58,699 bases of DNA, filler included, from Sphacelaria rigidula (GCA_964200075.2; 9 parts of 9 records of this genome joined end to end with filler, not necessarily neighbours in it), one strand, 5' to 3'. Numbered from the whole stretch's first letter, positions 2,651 to 52,323 are shown. Made by a program: numbers and translations. The notes: generated from the letters alone by a model not told the origin.

Positions 2651-3348
2651 ATCGGACCTGAGGGGAAAACGACTGCCGAAACGGTAGGTGAGAGGTGATA
2701 TGAGTGCAAAATAGAAGCGATAACTGGGAGTCGATGATGAGGAGCTGCCGGCAGTTCCAAAAATAATGACCGCCAACCTGTCGGCACTCGTTCACATATT
2801 TCATGAAAAATTAGCAGTAGGCGCCACCCTATCCACGATGCGTGACCGACCACTTTCGTCAACGAGTACGAAAGATATCACGCAAGATGTGCTGCCATGT
2901 AGTTGCAGGAGGCCCAAGAGATCAAGCCGTCGTCAAACGACCATGAGGTAGGGGCGTGCGGTAGACCCATGGGACGAGGTGATCAACTTGCCAACGATTA
3001 AGGTAATGTTGCACTCACATACATACATCTGCCGGGCAGTTGACCTTGCTTCCTGATCCCCATTTGATTTTCCACAGCCATCAAAATATGTCAACGGGGT
3101 GATCCGTGCCTCTACGGAATGTGCCTAACCTCCGATGCCCCTCAAAAGATTCGCTGAACAGAGGCGAAGAGTTTAGCGTGAAGGTAATCACCCATTTGGG
3201 CAGGTGACTGAAAGAGTGCATCGCTTTCCGAAGCGTCATATCTCCCACGCGGTCAGGACGCAGTCGTAAGACCAGGAGAATCGCTACTCGATATGTTGTC
3301 GAAGCTTTGCAAGTCAAGACGTCACGTGGGGTGAGCACGTCCCATTGG

Positions 3349-3579
3349 CTCTTTGAACCAAGCGCGCATTTCTTGACACGCTGCTTCCCTCCCCGAGCTG
3401 CCGTGTCGACGCAAAACCACGCATATATTTAAGCTGACTTGCACCTATCTCACAAGGACGTCTCATTGACTCTTCGAACCAAGCGCACATTGCTTGACAT
3501 GCTGCTTCCCTCCCCGAGTGCCGTGTCGACGCAAAACCACGCATATATCTATAACTGACTTGCACATATCTCACAAGAA
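3349..3579. repeat. Diverged tandem duplication, about 121-bp period, 2 copies
   Basis: CTCTTTGAACCAAGCGCGCATT...CTCACAAG at 3349 is repeated as CTCTTCGAACCAAGCGCACATT...CTCACAAG at 3470. Confidence 0.85.
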
Positions 3580-6434: not shown

Positions 6435-6534
6435 NNNNNNNNNNNNNNNNNNNNNNNNNNNNNNNNNNNNNNNNNNNNTTAATTAATTAANNNNNNNNNN
6501 NNNNNNNNNNNNNNNNNNNNNNNNNNNNNNNNNN
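6435..6534. other. Artificial contig-joining spacer (44N-TTAATTAATTAA-44N); also at 12969-13068, 19503-19602, 26036-26135, 32569-32668, 39102-39201, 45635-45734 and 52168-52267
   Basis: Identical 100-nt spacer eight times, with stops in all six frames; the contigs between them are 6434, 6433 and 6432 bp in descending order. Confidence 0.99.
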
Positions 6535-9500
6535 CCCTAACTAACTCCATACCTAATACATTCTTTGGATCCCAAATAGGAGGAGTAGTAGTGCATAATT
6601 CTCGAAACTTTACCACAGTAGCTTCCAACATTGCTTTATTGTTCCCCGTCATTATAAAGTCATCCACGAAGTCATATATTATAATCAGTGACTCATCATC
6701 TAAATCTCTTAGAATATAAAGCTTAGGACTCATGCGAAGAGGCTTAAATCTCATCGATCTCAGTCGCTCATCCACTTCAGTTCCATAATCTCTAGGTGAT
6801 GTCTTTAATCCATATAATGCCTTCAATATTTCATAGTATCTCTCTACACCTTTTAGTTTTGCATATACTACCTTCTCTCCTTTATAAGTTGCATTCAGGA
6901 ATGCTCTTACCTCATCAATATGTACCAGTGACCACTTAAATTTCGCCACCAAGTGCAATATAACCCATAATTCTTCTCTACTAGGCGTAGCTGAGTAGGT
7001 TGCTGTAGCTCCATAATGTGTTCTACCATCACCTACCAATCTGACTTTCTTTACTAACACACCTTCTTTCTCTTTTTCTTCGTATACTGGGAATAGTACC
7101 ACTAAGTCTGCACCATTCTTGATAGCATTCCGTGCCATTTCCGTATCAACTTGTAACATGGTCTTTGCTTCGGTCAAGGTATTCCATTCCTTCCTAGCAG
7201 GTTCCCCCCATTCACTATGTTTTAATGCTTCATCGTAATTCTTGGGTATATTTCTTGTCACTGCCCTGTAACTGTCTTCATACTGTACTTCAGGTCTTAC
7301 TAAATCCTCCATAGATACAGTGTAAAACGCATTTTCCGTTACCGAATAGTAATATTCATCTTTCTTAACTGTACTCCAGTCAGCAAAACATGCATCAAAT
7401 AACTGTTTTGATGTGTTTATGTCCTTCTTTTCTATAAATACATAATTTGCCGCCTCACTTCTTCTCATGTAGCGCTCCTCTCTGGTTCCCCAGCTGCTTC
7501 TATCAATCATTTTTCTTTGTTTTGTACGTGGTTTCTTCTTCTTTCTCACCCCTGAGCCCACATTTGGCTCACGTACTGTCGTTTCTTCTGGTATAGCCCC
7601 ACCAGTTACCACCTGATGTCGGGCTCCCTCTATTATATTGGATGTATTATCACCCCTCAACTCTGAGCCCCTATCGGTAGACTCAGATGTTGATGTAACA
7701 TCCAAATTTGCTCTTGTATTTTCATTTCGGTCCTCACTTAATACACCTTGATTATCTGAACTATGCGAAACTTGTACCGGTAATGGAGTAAGTGTACTAG
7801 GAAAAATACGTTGATCAGACGTTACTTCCGTTCCTTCTTCCTCTGTTACCTCCTCTTCTAATAATTTACGTAATCCTCGTTGCACTTGTGGGTATAAATT
7901 CATTGAACCACCATCAGTAACACACTTATACTTAGATGTCGTAACAATATTCAATCTTTTGTTTGTTAATACTGCTACTCTTATGCCACCTGTTACCAGT
8001 GAATCTGGCCCAACATATAAACCATACTGGAAAAACCTCCGATTTGCCCCATCCAGTGCAGCAGCATTTGGTTCTTCTCTCAGTACCATAAGTACAGAAA
8101 ATATAGGTAGCAGGCGTATTTCTTGAATATTAGGCTTTTTTCCAGTAAACATCTCATATCGAGTAATACCCTTAACAGTGGGACACTCTTTTAAGTTAAT
8201 GACCGTTATAGCCCAGTAAAATAACTCACCCCATAGCTGTAAAATCTGCTGGGTACTAAAACCCAAATACTTCAGGTTGGGATTCCGTAAGATATATTGT
8301 ACCGCCATTCTTATTTTTTCTTTGATAACGCCAATAATGCGCTCTACATGTGGAGTACCATTCGCATGGTTATATGGTTCAGCTCCACTAAATTTTATTT
8401 GTTTACTCAATAAATATGCGATAACTTCAGGTGTACTAACACGAAATTTCCCTTCATGAATAATACCTCTATCAGCTGCCATCTCGCCAATCTTATATCC
8501 TGCTGTATCGTATGTATTTACTGTTTCTTTTACCCACGTGACGGCATTCGCCATACTCTTTATTAGACGACCATGGACAAAACCAGAATAAACATCATAT
8601 GTAACATTTGCTGCTATAGCACCACCGTGAGTTGGAAGTTTCCTAGCCCTTTTCCGAGAAAGTACAGAAGTAGGGTTAACTGTAGCAACTTCGTCAGTGG
8701 TATCGCCCTCATTAAAATCGCTTTCCATGTTATCTATCTCCACTAGTTCTCCACATCTCGTAAACTTACGAGGCTCAGTCATATAACCTTTTACATTTCC
8801 CATCTTATTGGGATGAGCTAAGTGTACTACATCGGGTGTCCTACCCCACTTAGACTCAAAATTGGACAAAACTGCCGTCTTCAACTCTGGATGGAAACCC
8901 GTTATGCTTCCCTCCGAGATGGCGGCTTGTAAATCCCTTAAACTTAAACCTGTCAGCATATATAATAATACTAATTCTTCTTTGGTGGACACATTCACCT
9001 TAGTATTAAAATAATTACTCGCTGCATGAGCTTCTTCATCATTCTCTTTTATTACCTCATATGTACGATTTCTTACACGTAACCTCTTGAAAACAGTAAA
9101 GTCGCGAATAAATTCACGTAACTTCTGCTGTTCTTCATCCGACAGTTTCAAAACCACTCCATCCAAGTGAAATAGAATTGCTGCGCCGTTTTCAACGTAA
9201 TCATTTCCGCATAATAGTGCCAAATCATTTGGCATACTTGATACAAAATATTCCGTCATACCATCAAAATTTACTCCCACTTGATCCACATAACTCCGAG
9301 CATCATTAAATCCTCTTATAACAATATTATGATCTACATCAACTGCATTAATTCGTCCCGATGCCCCTGACATAGACTTGCTAGCCGCTGTATCAAACTT
9401 TTCCGTCACATTTAAATCATTTTCTGCCATACTGCATTCTTCTTCTTCAACACGCGTAACATCATCCCAGTTAATACTATAGGCAGCAAGAGCTACTGGA

Positions 9501-9718
9501 TTCATCTTACCAGACTTACAACCTACATCCACCACGATATCTTTCATGTAATCACTTACAAAACTACTTTCATCCTGCTCACACTCCAAACAACATTCTG
9601 TACAATTCATTGCTGCAAAAGCCGTTTCAGAGTCCATTTTTATATTTTTATTATTTACACATACACCACAAGTTTGTTCACCAGACAATTTCTTATCCAG
9701 TATAACATTAGTTTTCAT
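6535..9718 (-). CDS. pol: Pol of the copia element, part 1: protease, integrase, RT (continues across the circular junction)
   Basis: Protease FDTAASKSMS; integrase core VEIDN / AADRG / PHVERIIG; GKGY-like region YGLYVG; RT motifs PKNYDEAL, KVRLVGDG, HIDEVRAFL, LKALYGLKTSPR, FVDD. Confidence 0.95.
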
Positions 9719-9724
9719 AATTTG

Positions 9725-11389
9725 TCAGCCATTCGTAGGATTTTGTTCCTTTCTATAGGTATCTGTATGTTGCATACAATTTGCCCCTGTATGGCCATAC
9801 AAACCACAAACTTTACACTGCCCACAATAGCACTTGGGGCGATGTGGTTCCACTTTTCCGCCTGATGGTTTTCCACAACAAATTGTACACCCTACTAATG
9901 TGGCACTGTATGGATATTCAAATCCCGTGTTCACGTCTTTAATTTTGTAACCTTGATCCCTATCAATTAACGTGTTGTATTGAATGTCCACCGCATGTGC
10001 TGTCTCAACATTTCCACGTCTACCTGGAAAAGTGCCAGATAATGCCTGCGAATTGGAATTTCCGGTGTTTTGAGTATTCGACGCTTTCAGACGAGAACTA
10101 TTCTCAGAAAGCCGAATATATTCACACAAATGTCTGTAAATAGGAAGTTTATTTACCGTATTTGTTGAAATCACAGACTGGTCATCATATAATTCTCCTC
10201 TTTGTTTCTTGGAAATATATTCACCCACAATCATTACGCATTTTTGTTGAAAATCCGACGAAGGCATAGACATCAGTAAAACATTTACAAAGAAAATATC
10301 TTCATCCATGTAGTTCCAGTAATTCATGGATTGCCAAATATCATACCACTTATCGGTCAGTTGAATGGCCTTGGTAGGGGTTCTCATCAACTCATCTTTA
10401 TTAATACTTATACGTAAAGTATCTTGTAAATCTTTATTAAATTGAACCAGATTCGCAGTAAAATACTCCGATTTTAGGATTTGATACATCCCTGCTAGGT
10501 TTGCCTTTTCCAAAGGATTAGCAATGCACTCTCCAGTAGATTCTAAAAGAACCGTACACGACAACTTTTGTTTAACTTTCTCATACGTAGATGCTATTGC
10601 TTTAGTCTTATTCGCCATTAAATTAATAACAGATTGCAGACCTTCTAAGATTGTTTGCATAATAACCAACCTATCCATTATTTTGGTGAGTTTATCCTTG
10701 GAAATTTTTGCGTTTAAAGCATTTTCTCTGGCGGTTTCAAATGCTTCATGCTGTTCCACAAACTTTTGGTCATAATATGCTTCAAGAGCTCTGGTTTTAT
10801 CTAGTACCTCCTTTTCTTCGTCTGCAGTTTCTGTCTCACTATCTTTTTCTACATCAGACAGTCTATCCGCATCAGTTTTTAATTTCGCATTTTTTCTAGT
10901 TTTAATGCCTTTATCTAAATCTTTTGCTTTCGCTCTATTTTCCTTCCACTTTCTTAACTCCACAGATACAACTCTGGAGTAGTATTCAGAATTCGGTTCA
11001 CGAGGTTGGTGTTCAATTATTTGTTCCCTGGCGCTCACTTCTGATTGCAATTTTACTAATTCCGACGTCCGTTTCGAAATTAATTTTTCAATTGAAAAAT
11101 TTGTGGTAACCAATAACAGCAATTCTTCTCCCCAACCATATTTAAACATTTGATAGATATTTTTATACAGTTTTCTACCGAATACAGCTTCACTTGTATT
11201 CGTTTGTTCCTTTAAATCTATTGATTTAATATTTTCAACGAGCATCCGCACTCGATCCTTTACTAATTCCTTATTGAGGCCATCTCCTACACCACGTAGT
11301 TTAGATTCAACCTCTAAAAATTTGTCATTCTCTTCAAAACCATACATCGGTTCTGGACTTAAATAAACACTATCTTCATCTTGATTCAT
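9725..11389 (-). CDS. gag: Gag of the copia element, 554 aa, with a C-terminal CCHC zinc knuckle
   Basis: Uninterrupted ORF upstream of pol. CKVCGLYGHTGANC is CX2CX4HX4C, preceded by a second Cys/His cluster CTICC...HRPKC. Confidence 0.9.
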   Translation of the reverse strand: MNQDEDSVYLSPEPMYGFEENDKFLEVESKLRGVGDGLNKELVKDRVRMLVENIKSIDLKEQTNTSEAVFGRKLYKNIYQMFKYGWGEELLLLVTTNFSIEKLISKRTSELVKLQSEVSAREQIIEHQPREPNSEYYSRVVSVELRKWKENRAKAKDLDKGIKTRKNAKLKTDADRLSDVEKDSETETADEEKEVLDKTRALEAYYDQKFVEQHEAFETARENALNAKISKDKLTKIMDRLVIMQTILEGLQSVINLMANKTKAIASTYEKVKQKLSCTVLLESTGECIANPLEKANLAGMYQILKSEYFTANLVQFNKDLQDTLRISINKDELMRTPTKAIQLTDKWYDIWQSMNYWNYMDEDIFFVNVLLMSMPSSDFQQKCVMIVGEYISKKQRGELYDDQSVISTNTVNKLPIYRHLCEYIRLSENSSRLKASNTQNTGNSNSQALSGTFPGRRGNVETAHAVDIQYNTLIDRDQGYKIKDVNTGFEYPYSATLVGCTICCGKPSGGKVEPHRPKCYCGQCKVCGLYGHTGANCMQHTDTYRKEQNPTNG

Positions 11390-11390
11390 G

Positions 11391-11405
11391 ACTTTTAATC
11401 AGTAA
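11391..11405 (-). promoter_or_regulatory. Candidate self-priming primer-binding site, complementary to 11491-11505
   Basis: Minus-strand TTACTGATTAAAAGT is the exact reverse complement of ACTTTTAATCAGTAA 100 nt upstream; it abuts the LTR-terminal CA and has no TGG tRNA signature. Confidence 0.7.
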
Positions 11406-11592
11406 TGTAAGCGGTAGGCTCCGCTATTTCAACTAATTAAATAAAATATAAGAAAGAATACAGCAAGATTATCAACTCCAATTGTTTATCTTACTGATTA
11501 AAAGTGCGCAAACCAGGTTGGCTGCTTCACCACAAACAAACAGCATATGGATTCCCACAATCCCTACAAACTACATCAATCTACCTGATACA
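11406..11592 (-). repeat. Putative single LTR of the copia element (about 187 bp, TGTA...TACA)
   Basis: On the minus strand it starts TGTATCAG after CAGCGGTG (weak PPT candidate) and ends CTTACA directly before the 15-nt primer-site candidate. Only one copy is present, so the boundaries are inferred, especially the 5' one. Confidence 0.55.
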
Positions 11593-12048
11593 CACCGCTG
11601 ATTATGTCTAGAATATCAGATAGGCAGAATCACAACAGGTTGATGAACTAAAACTACTCAAAATCACAACATTATATATCAAAATTTTTGCCAATTTATT
11701 CCGGATAATAACATGTGTGGAGTTCGCTAATTAATAATGTTTCACATTTTTGCGTTTCACACTCAAAATGTCATATACACTCAAAAACATGTTTTTTTCA
11801 ATTTTCTCGCCAAATAAAGCGTGTTTGAGCGTGATATTTACGACTTAGAGTTTTCACAGCAGACTCTGGACGACCCTCGACGACATATATTGTGTACAAA
11901 ATTAATACCGATTTTATTATTTCCACTAAATTTTCCATTCTTTATTATTCAGTTTTTGTATTTACTGTATCATAAATTTAGATTCTTGATTCTAGATTTT
12001 GACTTAATAAATCCATTGTTAATTATTATTTAATAATTGTATTCAGTC

Positions 12049-12968
12049 TTATAATAAGCTTAATCCTTGCACATCTCTCAAGAACTCCTGATGATCTAAG
12101 CGATCTCCAAGCTTAGTAAACTTATCTGCTGATAAAATCTTACCCGACATATATTCTAAATTAAAGTTCTGCATCAGGTATTGTTCTCTTGTATACCACA
12201 TTCTTAATTCCATATGTCTAACACCTTTAGCTACTCCTTCTCCTTTCACAAAACCAATCATAGCTTGATTATCACAGTTTAATACAGGTTGATTCTGTTC
12301 TATACCAAGTTGCTTTAACAAGTTAACCAAGAATCTCATCACCTTCATTCCACGTGAACAAGCATCTAACTCAGCTTCGAATGAAGATAAGGAAACAGTA
12401 TGTCCAGCATTCGACTTAGCTATTACACCACCAGATTTATCACCTAATCTCATAAAAACTGCTGATATACTCCTACCCTTAGGTCCAGTACCCAATGAAG
12501 CATCCGTAGACCCAATTATACCAACATCATCACTACCACCTAACACTAGAGGTATGTCTATACTATGATATAGGTATGAAACTACATATAATGCCATGTC
12601 CATATGATGTTGTCTAGGTGCTTTAGTGAACCAAGCTAGGTATGTAGTAGCAAAAATAATGTCCAATCGTACCCCATTCAGCCATATTAAGCTCCCTACT
12701 ATCTGCATATAGCGTTCACGCCCCTTATTATCCAAGAATGATCTCTTAATGTCCGATAACTCCTCAAACTGATGATCGTGCACTATATACCCAGATTGTG
12801 GTATAGGCACATGCTTCACCTTACTATTAGTCATATGAAACTTTTCTGCTAACTCTCTTATCTTATCCCGCATATAAATGCTTATAGTATTACTGTTGTA
12901 ATCCCTAACTAACTCCATACCTAATACATTCTTTGGATCCCAAATAGGAGGAGTAGTAGTGCATAATT
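12049..12968 (-). CDS. pol: Pol of the copia element, part 2: RT end and RNase H (joined Pol is 1345 aa from ATG 9718)
   Basis: YMQIVGSLIWL...RLDI; RNase H motifs TDASL, SLSSFEAE, CDNQAMI, RHMELR, ADKFTK; in frame with part 1 through the 66-bp overlap. Confidence 0.95.
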
Positions 12969-13068
12969 NNNNNNNNNNNNNNNNNNNNNNNNNNNNNNNN
13001 NNNNNNNNNNNNTTAATTAATTAANNNNNNNNNNNNNNNNNNNNNNNNNNNNNNNNNNNNNNNNNNNN

Positions 13069-19474: not shown

Positions 19475-19602
19475 CGGTTGTCGGGGTGAAGGTGGTGCCG
19501 GGNNNNNNNNNNNNNNNNNNNNNNNNNNNNNNNNNNNNNNNNNNNNTTAATTAATTAANNNNNNNNNNNNNNNNNNNNNNNNNNNNNNNNNNNNNNNNNN
19601 NN

Positions 19603-24801: not shown

Positions 24802-24875
24802 GGGGATGTAGCTCAGTCGGGTAGAGCGTTTGTCTCATAAGCAGAAGGTCGAAAGTTCGAGCCTCTCTATCCCCG
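24802..24875 (+). tRNA. tRNA-Met (CAT), elongator-like; possibly a pseudogene
   Basis: Acceptor GGGGATG/TATCCCC; D arm GCTC/GAGC; anticodon arm TTTGT-CTCATAA-GCAGA; T arm GAAAG-TTCGAGC-CTCTC (one A-C mismatch); T-run about 8 nt downstream. Confidence 0.85.
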
Positions 24876-24961
24876 CTTAATTGTTTTTCGCCGGACCCCC
24901 GCGACCTGACTTCAAAATACCATACTGGTACAGCAAAACCGTTTGGGGAACGTAGTATTCA

Positions 24962-26035: not shown

Positions 26036-26172
26036 NNNNNNNNNNNNNNNNNNNNNNNNNNNNNNNNNNNNNNNNNNNNTTAATTAATTAANNNNNNNNN
26101 NNNNNNNNNNNNNNNNNNNNNNNNNNNNNNNNNNNAGACACGTGGAATAGCGCAAAAGTTGCGTGGGACACC

Positions 26173-32568: not shown

Positions 32569-33734
32569 NNNNNNNNNNNNNNNNNNNNNNNNNNNNNNNN
32601 NNNNNNNNNNNNTTAATTAATTAANNNNNNNNNNNNNNNNNNNNNNNNNNNNNNNNNNNNNNNNNNNNCCCCGCGCGCGCGCATTATCACTCTGGTGGAT
32701 ATCGTTCGAAATCATGGTGAGAACCTCGATTAACATCAAGATATTTCTGAAGAGGAGCGTGAATGCATTTTGCGCTCGTCACGTTTGGCCTCCATCATCC
32801 TCGAAATAAACCCCTCATCACTTAAAAAAATTCCGTGTTTCTTTCCTTTTTGTTGTACACAATAATAACACGACGTCGCTGGTGGCGGCTTACCATAATA
32901 ATGCACGAAAAATGTGGATCATGCGCGGCGCATACATGCGTACAACAATGGCGTTGTCTTTACATTCGCCATTCTCAGCACTTTAGCACGATATTCTTCA
33001 TTTGTGTGCGGTTCACTTTTGTCTCGAGTCCCAGTTTTCATTTACTCTTGGTGGCTCATAGGCGGTTATTTTCATAAAAGCCCGACAAATTGAAATGTCA
33101 TAGGAATTGCCAAATGAAGGCCAGAAGACGATGAGATGTATACGTTTCGAAGAGTACTACAACGATGATATTATTATGGTACTGCTTACTGATATATCAC
33201 TAGAAGGAAGCTATGGCTACGCCAGTGGTTTGTTGGCGTTCTCTTGTGGCTGCAGGTGAAGTCCTGGTGCTTCATCATATATATTGCAACCATGCTTCTC
33301 ATCACAGGTGTTTTATTTTGTCGTCTTATTCGAGAAATGAGTCGAGGTTACTATTTCGAAGGAACGAACTAGGTGTAGCTGACTTCCTAATTTTTGACCA
33401 CTAATCCGACAATTCGTCGCCACCGCCGAAAACGTTGTTGCCGTAGCCCTGAGAGCAGGCAGCGACGTGCGTGTGAGCAAAAAGGTCTACTTGGTAAAGG
33501 TCGATGTGCCCGGGGCCCGTCGCACCCCGTGCAGGAGAAACTAGGCAGGAACCAGAGTAGGTGGGAGAAAGCATAGAGACAGAGAGTAGCCCACGAATGG
33601 TGGATCAAACACCAGAAGAAAAGGGACACGCAGAGACGAAATAAGAGAAGGAGGGAAAAACCAGCTCGGCGAGCAGTCAAGCCACAGGCGCCCGCCAATC
33701 GCGCTGCTACAATAGCGGCGTCTCGATCCAAAGA

Positions 33735-38837: not shown

Positions 38838-39201
38838 TACCGATTTGCACAACCTTACATGTGAGTTGTGGCTTTTTTTTGTAATTATTGTTCGAGGTTT
38901 GCGCAGGGGGTGGTCTTTGTCGGGGATCGTCTCCAACCACAATCATCATCAGATGAAGCAAAGCCAACCAACCCACAGCAGCACGAAGGTGTTCCCGACA
39001 AGTCCGAGTCGTGAGTATTTGGTACGTGTTAGAAGGGTCACGTGCATTATACAGGCGAAAGGAAGGATACGTGAACATTTTTTTTTTCGGCCCTCCGGGG
39101 GNNNNNNNNNNNNNNNNNNNNNNNNNNNNNNNNNNNNNNNNNNNNTTAATTAATTAANNNNNNNNNNNNNNNNNNNNNNNNNNNNNNNNNNNNNNNNNNN
39201 N

Positions 39202-45634: not shown

Positions 45635-46440
45635 NNNNNNNNNNNNNNNNNNNNNNNNNNNNNNNNNNNNNNNNNNNNTTAATTAATTAANNNNNNNNNN
45701 NNNNNNNNNNNNNNNNNNNNNNNNNNNNNNNNNNAAAAATGGACACAATCCCGGGGAGCGGTTGATTCTCATTTCAAAATACGTTCTCATTTTTCTGGCA
45801 ACTCTGTTCTATGAAGAAATGAACAAGCACACAGGCAAGGAAGCCAACTGTATCCAGGAACTATGACAGAAACTCAGATGATACAGCGTACGGTGATGCT
45901 GTGCGGTAGTCCCATCCACAAACAAGTGCACCGAAGACTGGCCATGAATGGGGGACATGGTGTGTTTTCACCAAAGGTCGATACGGTCCTTTCGGACCCC
46001 TTTGTTAGTTCAGGATCCTTTTTGGACTTGCGATCGTGTTTGCTAAGAGCTAGAACTCCCGCCAGTAACCGTGCGTGGCTAGTTTCAAAACCTGCTCGGT
46101 CACATTGATTGTCGAACGAGGGGTATATTATCTCAACACCTGCAACAACACGCACGCGTCGGGCGTTGTTCGAGCAGACCAAGTTGTCGATACATAGCTC
46201 ATGATGAAGCAATCAATGCGGCGAGAGGAGGGTAACTAAATCACGGAAGGTAGAAAACGCTGCTCTGATGAGGTAGCTACGTCTTTTCTGCCGTCCCTGC
46301 TCAGTCGCTGTGGGGTGGTCATTTTGTCGAAATCATACTATCGATTACATCATGCCACTTACCCAATATCGCACGGGTGTAATCCTTTCAGTTTAACGTG
46401 TCTCCGGGTGGCTGATGTGGCGCTCGACGTTTGGAGCCCA

Positions 46441-51693: not shown

Positions 51694-52323
51694 TCACAAG
51701 ATCAACAACTCTTTCCTTATACCGAGACGCGCTGTACCACCTTACAAAGACAATGGCCACAGCGCCTCTTCCTCACGCAGGTTTCACCACGTGTTTGAAG
51801 TCCTTAGACTCCTCTTCCTGGCCGTACCTGGCCAAGCGTGGAACAAGCAACTCTCGCTGGTTCCACTAGGCAGTACGGTAATTGCGCCGCTTTTTTTTAT
51901 ACGCGCACGGGCTCGCCAGCTGTCGGTCAACCCCCCGCACCTCTCGCACGAGCGATACCACAGCCCACCCTAGCACTGCCTCAGAACCTCCTCGGCTCTA
52001 CTTTTCCAACTCCTCGCGACGTTAACACGCCTTGACCTGGTCTCGTTTGCTGCAAACTGATCAGGCCTGCAGACTTCCCTATCTTGTAATGTCAGCTGCT
52101 TTTCAGCGGACCCACCACCTCAGCGGACTTAATGAACGTTCATTATAGACCTCTGTCACTCAAGATCNNNNNNNNNNNNNNNNNNNNNNNNNNNNNNNNN
52201 NNNNNNNNNNNTTAATTAATTAANNNNNNNNNNNNNNNNNNNNNNNNNNNNNNNNNNNNNNNNNNNNGACGGCAGTCTCCCCCCGTAGGTCTCTGACCAC
52301 TCTAGCGATACGCCTTCCTTACA

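Follow-up and report, generated by a model that had tools for sequence, protein, structure and literature searches.

In the long terminal repeat (LTR) retrotransposon Tf1 of fission yeast, the leading 11 bases of the element's RNA pair with a primer-binding site (PBS); RNase H cuts the RNA between bases 11 and 12 to leave a primer (PMC7175516); Tj1 is described as a further self-priming element of fission yeast (PMC4600332). Tf1, Tf2 and Tj1 all belong to the Tf1/sushi group of Ty3/gypsy elements, and each of them has a PBS that directly adjoins the 5' LTR and can pair with the beginning of that element's transcript. Here we describe an element of the other large type, Ty1/copia, that probably primes its minus-strand DNA in the same way. 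It lies on the minus strand at 6535-12968 of a 58,699-base stretch of DNA from Sphacelaria rigidula (GCA_964200075.2), hereafter the window, which means the whole stretch that was analysed.

Among copia elements, self-priming has been predicted for the plant TAR lineage, an idea that had been raised before for Houba and Osr-1; what was required of TAR elements is an LTR-internal complement of at least 10 bp that starts 0-5 bp after the 5' LTR (PMC6317226). A first, sequence-only reading of the window, which suggested a Tf1-like architecture for the present element, was thus right to remark that self-priming had already been proposed for TAR. Other copia elements offer partial likenesses. Tca2/pCal of Candida albicans, about 6.4 kb long, has gag and pol in one frame with a stop codon between them (PMC7175516), and the CoDi copia elements of diatoms (stramenopile algae) have one stop or none at this position (PMC2806351); the likeness to CoDi is drawn from description, not from sequence, and a term search of the main text of that paper returned nothing on PBS or tRNA priming. 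A survey of fungal copia elements found an unusual conserved hairpin in the PBS region and no self-complement (PMC5445492), and the dictyostelid Skipper elements are without such complements (PMC5006619). In a search of a limited literature collection that took in diatoms, stramenopiles, oomycetes and chrysophytes, none of the papers listed describes self-priming copia elements outside plants.

A perfect inverted repeat at the mapped edge of the LTR

The element carries the 15-mer ACTTTTAATCAGTAA at 11505-11491 (the 5' arm) and its perfect reverse complement, TTACTGATTAAAAGT, at 11405-11391 (the 3' arm, or predicted PBS). The 3' arm stands directly after the sequence ...CCGCTTACA, whose CA occupies 11407-11406. 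A general repeat search (I5) reported the same arm pair as 20 nt of 90% complementarity around a gap of 75 nt. The arms sit in a non-coding region of 673 nt, where the longest inverted repeat with a loop of 3-200 nt is 15 nt, a length reached by 0 of 300 dinucleotide-preserving shuffles (maximum 13); chance was rejected as its source on this ground and because many assemblies yield the feature, at 47 further loci. In the element's sequence the CA is followed by no TGG, the sole complement found for the PBS is the element's own LTR segment, and the ATG of gag begins at 11389, one base past the 3' arm. All of the coordinates that the sequence-only reading had claimed for the arms, the U5 hairpin and the CA are correct on the minus strand, as is its statement that no TGG-type PBS stands beside the LTR. 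It had also called the polarity suitable for priming, and indeed the opening bases of the PBS are the partners of the 5' arm's 3' end, such that extension would run into U5. The window holds a tRNA-Met (CAT) gene at 24802-24876 (+), on another contig, which has no 6-mer complement to the 43 nt around the LTR end.

Since the element's contig holds a single copy of the LTR, outside data were needed to place the LTR ends. Logan contigs of four public runs of one study (X1 to X4), which contain 85-89% of the element's sampled words, were mapped to the element; these runs may include the source of the stretch itself, and what they provide is direct evidence, not independent replication. Loose contig ends occur at 11592 (two contigs in X1, agreement 0.57, and one in X3, which has another at 11591) and at 11406 (two contigs each in X2, agreement 0.65, and X4, 0.63). 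Among the ends listed, single loose ends also occur at 11433, 11532 and other positions, and only 11592 and 11406 have two loose-ended contigs within one run. The flanks into which these contigs depart differ at both positions, which are therefore LTR junctions with different insertion sites. The flanks are 30-nt consensus strings from different insertions, with no single copy showing both junctions. The LTR is thus 11592 to 11406, 187 nt, TGTA...TACA, exactly the ends predicted beforehand, and the element is an integrated, multi-copy LTR retrotransposon of Ty1/copia type. The polypurine-tract-like AATCAGCGGTG followed by TGTAT at the LTR start aligns with AATTAGGGGTG followed by TGTAT in the two close relatives L001 and L002, in both of which the start TGTAT after GGTG is conserved.

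The repeat recurs, with covarying arms, across a divergent family

With the pol protein as query, 144 relatives were found at E <=0.001 among 8000 candidates scored (best identity 83%), nearly all of them on contigs of 5-7 kb; a search of viral contigs with the same protein gave 346 pattern matches and zero relatives. A scan of metagenome contigs with the family alignment then yielded 69 loci (L001-L069), and both strands of each locus and of the element were searched for inverted repeats that are perfect and 12 nt or longer. Exactly one perfect repeat of 13-16 nt, with a 44-120-nt loop, lies in the region upstream of gag in 44 of the 70 sequences; outside that region only a few matches of 12-14 nt occur, in L003, L014, L043 and L044. 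The 44 sequences reduce to 39 regions and 33 arm pairs that are distinct. Among the remaining 26 loci, a less strict scan found arm pairs with a single mismatch on the sense strand in L027 (G.U), L041 (U.G) and L035 (A/G), and a perfect 14-mer pair after ...TTACA in L044. The 22 sequences without the repeat are mostly short fragments or lack the part upstream of gag: L053 stops before the PBS, L032 passes from pol into unrelated purine-rich DNA, and L014 offers 229 nt upstream of gag, with no repeat, where the repeat of its subclade lies 159-640 nt upstream. No locus among the 70 sequences clearly has the LTR-gag junction and lacks the repeat. Five of the loci (L043, L044, L057, L064 and L068) are degenerate copies with many stops, and L043 and L044 have in common another perfect inverted repeat, of 14 nt around a 27-nt loop (ACTATAGCTGGTGG).

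A maximum-likelihood tree of 36 pol rows, all from sequences with the repeat, resolves about 7 deep, well-supported subclades, in all of which the repeat is found, and the paths from the element to the other subclades measure at least 2.6 changes per column; this was a quick tree of relatives only, without an outgroup, in which long branches were flagged. The relatives come from water metagenomes and protist sets. Leads on host range are one EukProt match with an Ochromonas name, and Atlas clusters whose few recorded taxa include Bacillariophyta, Oomycota and Streptophyta.

With the 33 distinct pairs anchored at the LTR-proximal end, each arm is fully Watson-Crick complementary to its own partner at 13/13 positions, compared with a mean of 6.3/13 (maximum 12) over the 1056 combinations with partners from other sequences. 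Each of the 13 positions shows 2-4 types of Watson-Crick pair, and the PBS differs between relatives at a mean of 6.7/13 positions; between the element and its relatives L001 and L002, for instance, three arm positions differ, each of them compensated in the PBS. The expectation that relatives would keep the complementarity through sequence change is thereby confirmed. Applied to a plain MAFFT alignment of 34 regions, RNAalifold predicted the arm helix and no other, with double changes in 13/13 pairs; the cells scored as broken in this result stem largely from rows that MAFFT had set out of register. When the distinct regions are folded individually from arm to arm, the duplex is part of the minimum-energy fold in 36 of 39. 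At 11436-11391 (-) an alternative local pairing is available to the PBS of the element, one that spans the U5 hairpin and has its partner some 30 nt upstream. About 1 kcal/mol better than the duplex, it is seen likewise in L001 and not in the other 37 distinct regions.

Further features accompany the arms. A hairpin is predicted within the 30 nt before the PBS in 30 of the 33 distinct sequences, with stems of at least six kinds that are compensatory among relatives (AGCGG/CCGCT, AGUAGUU/AACUACU, AGUGGU/ACCACU, AGCAG/CUGCU, CCGA/UCGG and CCUG/CAGG); within the same 30 nt it is missing in the group of L011, L018 and L026. Immediately before the 3' arm, the trinucleotide is ACA in 20 of the 33, ATT in 4, GCA and ACT in 3 each, GGA in 2 and AGA in 1. 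Because no contigs with two LTRs and their flanks were found among the relatives, the LTR starts there rest on two sequence marks, a GGTG-TG junction and terminal inverted repeats. The junction, which was sought within 260 nt upstream of the arm, is present in 18 of the 33, at a distance of 47-219 nt before the 5' arm, and the bases after it mirror those before the PBS (TGTTAG...CTAACA, TGCTTTA...TAAAGCA). They form terminal inverted repeats 3-7 nt long, with the exception of L046 and L047, in which the first base alone mirrors. Judged by these marks, the relatives with GGTG-TG likewise have the 5' arm within the LTR and the 3' arm directly beside it.

The 5' arm opens with an A after c or t in 19 of the 33 pairs and is preceded by 'ca' in 12 (31/33 together); the complementarity ends at a pyrimidine-A, as it would if the RNA started there. 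By eye, no TATA box was seen at a fixed distance upstream of the 5' arm, and none in U3. Directly after the 5' arm stands GATAAACAA; most of the closer subclades have gataaaca, gataacca, gacaaaca or gctaaaca at this place (consensus G(A/C)(T/A)AA(A/C)CA), and the distant subclades have ..GTAAG or ..AATCGC instead. The motif could be a mark of the cleavage site or a poly(A) signal.

Probable self-priming and the alternatives to it

In our view, the element's own RNA most likely serves as the primer of its minus-strand DNA, on the pattern of Tf1. In the proposed sequence of events, transcription would start at or within one base of 11505, and the first 15 nt of the RNA would fold back over about 85 nt of R-U5 to pair with the 15 nt that follow the LTR, with the small U5 hairpin adjoining the arm duplex. 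The element's RNase H would then cut after nt 15, by analogy with the cut after nt 11 in Tf1, and the freed 3'-OH would be extended into U5, a step that would fix the LTR end at 11406. Whatever the primer is, its position sets the 3' end of the LTR; as that end maps to 11406, the 3'-OH of the primer must sit on 11405. Under the standard scheme, plus-strand strong-stop synthesis would copy the RNA primer back into the PBS and so reset the complementarity in each cycle; such copy-back would account for the exact match of the arms in nearly all relatives, the degenerate L044 included.

Several observations weigh against this proposal. The transcription start, the cut and the primer are deduced from sequence, and no RNA run is among the public runs listed as matching the element. 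The arm duplex is A+U-rich, and the minimum-energy fold of the element omits it (-27.2 kcal/mol, compared with -26.0 when the duplex is forced); L001 also prefers an alternative fold, by 0.3 kcal/mol where the element does so by 1.2. LTR ends are mapped by junctions for this element only, and only from runs of one study. In 10 of the 33 arm pairs no CA precedes the arm, and the LTR end is less sure there. The contigs of relatives show terminal overlaps and tandem units, and none has a pair of LTRs with flanks. Finally, selection for a leader stem that serves another purpose could also maintain the complementarity.

This last point leads to an alternative that we regard as unlikely, namely that the duplex is a leader structure for packaging, dimerisation or control of gag translation, and that some other primer is used. 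The position of the gag ATG one base past the 3' arm would suit such a role, as would the slightly greater stability of the alternative local PBS fold in the element, and priming itself is proposed here from sequence. Control of the AUG, however, is not general, because the distance from the arm to the ATG varies among relatives between 1 and about 640 nt. The 3' arm follows the mapped LTR end with no base in between, precisely where the minus-strand primer must sit, which leaves no room for a second primer site, and no shared cellular RNA would fit there, since the PBS sequences of the relatives are too different from one another. The complementarity is moreover exact and sharp-ended in all 33 pairs, whereas a purely structural stem would tolerate wobble pairs. 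A different geometry of self-priming, in which the pairing arm is supplied by the same RNA's 3' LTR copy or by another genomic RNA within the particle, or in which transcription starts further upstream and leaves a 5' tail, seems to us rather improbable. Such an arm is present in every LTR, and would thus lie near the 3' end of the RNA if the poly(A) site is downstream of it, and the unpaired 'ca' before the arm in 12 of the 33 pairs could be read as a short tail; but the stop of complementarity at a conserved pyrimidine-A is what would be expected if the RNA begins there, and a 5' tail would, in the standard scheme, add unmatched bases to plus-strand strong-stop DNA.

Priming by a tRNA or half-tRNA at an unrecognised PBS is hardly credible: half-tRNA primers that do without TGG are known in some copia lineages (PMC6317226), but here no TGG follows the LTR, the relatives have 33 different PBS sequences, and the one tRNA found in the window lacks even a 6-mer of complementarity near the LTR end. 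That the repeat arose by chance or in assembly is extremely improbable, for although the contig is a collapsed, circularly permuted assembly, contigs of the public runs also cover the region.

Organization of the element and its proteins

The window consists of nine pieces of 6432-6434 nt, which are unrelated contigs, joined by linkers of 100 nt of N with TTAATTAATTAA at the centre (Table 1); adjacent pieces may derive from different organisms. The element is the second piece, and its G+C content of about 0.34-0.42 stands against about 0.45-0.55 in the rest of the stretch. An exact terminal overlap of 66 nt (6535-6600 = 12903-12968) falls inside pol, which shows that the contig is circularly permuted; the true unit is 6368 nt with one LTR copy, and with both LTRs a complete element would come to about 6555 nt. 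The permutation is confirmed by contigs of X1, X2 and X4 in which 12902 is joined to 6535, and the reading frame runs on across the overlap. Most full-length relatives are likewise circular permutations, with terminal overlaps of 31-127 nt, and L017 comprises 1.85 tandem units of 6414 nt. Circular assembly is expected from the collapse of multi-copy elements; extrachromosomal one-LTR circles or tandem arrays may also be the source of the relatives' circular contigs. The L002 contig starts 10 nt before the arm and has a 31-nt terminal overlap; this start was weighed as a possible mark of R, but a k-mer overlap is its likely cause, and the idea was dropped.

Table 1. Features of the element and of the window that contains it (LTR, long terminal repeat; PBS, primer-binding site; RT, reverse transcriptase)
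Feature	Coordinates	Strand	Remarks
Whole assembled unit	6535..12968	-	Terminal overlap; N linkers on both sides; run contigs
LTR	11406..11592	-	187 nt, TGTA...TACA; loose contig ends into differing flanks
U3	11506..11592	-	87 nt; putative boundary, between mapped LTR start and 5' arm
5' arm, proposed self-primer ACTTTTAATCAGTAA	11491..11505	-	Preceded by gcgc; putative first 15 nt of the transcript
Motif GATAAACAA	11482..11490	-	Directly after 5' arm; conserved in closer subclades
U5 hairpin AGCGG/AGCCTA/CCGCT	11410..11425	-	5-bp stem, 6-nt loop, 4 nt before PBS
PBS (3' arm, predicted) TTACTGATTAAAAGT	11391..11405	-	Starts 0 nt after the CA of the LTR
gag	9728..11389	-	554 aa; open reading frame and translation
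In-frame TGA, gag/pol (GGC TGA CAA)	9725..9727	-	Presumed read-through site
pol, first 1063 aa	6535..9724	-	Protease-like DTA motif, integrase, start of RT
Integrase region	7805..8857	-	pol residues 290-640; AlphaFold2 model and Foldseek
RT core (Pfam RVT_2)	6620..7087	-	pol residues 880-1035
pol, continued past wrap-around	12052..12966	-	End of RT and RNase H; stop codon 12049-12051
3' untranslated spacer, pol stop to polypurine tract	11604..12048	-	A+T-rich, about 445 nt
Polypurine-tract-like AATCAGCGGTG	11593..11603	-	Directly before LTR
Linkers	6435-6534, 12969-13068, 19503-19602, 26036-26135, 32569-32668, 39102-39201, 45635-45734, 52168-52267

In all, 659 non-coding bases separate pol from gag on the minus strand (12048 to 11390), and the 3' spacer within them has no open reading frame of 100 aa or more. 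In relatives the spacer from the pol stop to gag ranges from 180 nt (L041) up to 2516 nt (L025); L020, L021 and L025 are those whose spacers were noted alongside that of the element.

Within gag, a C-X2-C-X4-H-X4-C knuckle is readable near the end, and no Pfam family matches the protein even at E up to 5. The start of pol has FDTAAS, that is DTA rather than D(T/S)G; neither the zinc knuckle nor this protease motif has a Pfam match. Between the two genes, the in-frame TGA looks like a conserved UGA read-through site: across the gag-stop-pol junctions of relatives (rows from L002-L060, not deduplicated, the L033 row being an internal stop of a damaged copy), the stop is TGA in 31/32, TGA-C in 30/32 and TGA-CT(A/G/C) in 25/32. 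Pol is probably made by read-through of this UGA-C stop, whose context, we presume, resembles the known UGA-CUA read-through contexts.

The only Pfam match in pol is RVT_2 (E 4.3e-11, 43.3 bits against a cut-off of 31.6), which also matches 26/26 aligned family members. Pfam rve was not detected in the element's own pol and matches 2 of the 26 aligned relatives, with a best E of 0.0047; a search of the family profile against PDB sequences gave 0 matches at E up to 0.01. The AlphaFold2 model of pol residues 290-640 (mean pLDDT 79.0) finds as its best Foldseek matches the integrases of prototype foamy virus (4bac_A), Rous sarcoma virus and human immunodeficiency virus (E 3.5e-10, probability 1.00), and the model of the last 305 residues (pLDDT 92.6) finds RNase H1 (E 6.2e-5) and the RT-RNase H of cauliflower mosaic virus and Ty3. 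The order integrase, RT, RNase H places the element in the Ty1/copia type, and the copia assignment made from the sequence alone is borne out by RVT_2 and by an integrase fold upstream of RT. Look-alikes in the ESM Atlas are copia Pol clusters. Three proteins related to pol (P0045, P0074 and P0117) have a chromodomain match (PF00385) beside RVT_2; chromodomains are typical of gypsy chromoviruses.

Elsewhere in the window, a repeat of about 120 nt occurs in duplicate in the first contig, at 3334-3577 (+), with 89-97% likeness between the copies (families D3, D4 and D7).

Comparison with known self-priming elements

With an LTR-internal complement of 15/15 nt that starts 0 nt after the mapped LTR end, the element matches the architecture of Tf1. 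It shares with Tf1 an RNase H and a U5 stem-loop beside the duplex, and in Tf1 the stem-loop next to the primer-PBS duplex is reportedly required. It differs in superfamily, having the integrase before an RT of the RVT_2 type, and in arm length, 13-16 nt in the family compared with 11 nt. The gypsy order, in which RT and RNase H precede the integrase, is not found here; the element would thus work like Tf1 while standing outside the Tf1/sushi clade. The Tf1 mechanism is proven by experiment, and that of the element is read from its sequence.

Like the element, Tj1 and Tca2 have a UGA between gag and pol. In Tca2, a purine-rich tract with a pseudoknot follows, where the element and its relatives have a UGA-C(UA/UG/AA) context. 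To our knowledge, and with no search aimed at this point, self-priming has not been reported for Tca2.

The arms also fall within the bounds set for TAR self-priming, as to both length and distance from the LTR (PMC6317226). Compared with TAR, the proteins of the element are remote from the usual copia profiles (RVT_2 at 43 bits, rve not detected, no PDB sequence match). These remote profile scores and the non-plant leads speak, as indirect signs, against a place in TAR (Houba, Osr-1 and Fourf).

Significance

The architecture described here was already known; what is new is the lineage, how deep it runs and how strong the comparative evidence is. Experimental proof of self-priming has so far come only from Tf1 and its kin, and in copia elements self-priming has been a prediction for one plant lineage. 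The comparative basis is stronger here, with an LTR end placed to the base, 33 independent arm pairs that covary perfectly over subclades more than 2.5 substitutions per site apart, and a covarying U5 hairpin next to them. We suggest, tentatively and at somewhat less than even chances, that the family is a deep, species-rich Ty1/copia clade of aquatic protists without tRNA primers, in which all members combine self-priming by 13-16 nt with UGA read-through, and that its self-priming arose independently of that in Tf1/sushi and in TAR. If this is true, self-priming would be recurrent in LTR elements, or possibly ancestral, and each cycle would renew the PBS from the primer, with the arm pair evolving as one unit.

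Together, these results provide a second and very distant set of elements in which to study the RNA structure seen by RT and RNase H, the limits on the length of a self-primer and the number of times that self-priming has arisen. They also bear on annotation, since tools that look for a tRNA-type PBS will miss such elements or misplace their bounds, and elements of this kind seem to be common in freshwater and marine metagenomes.

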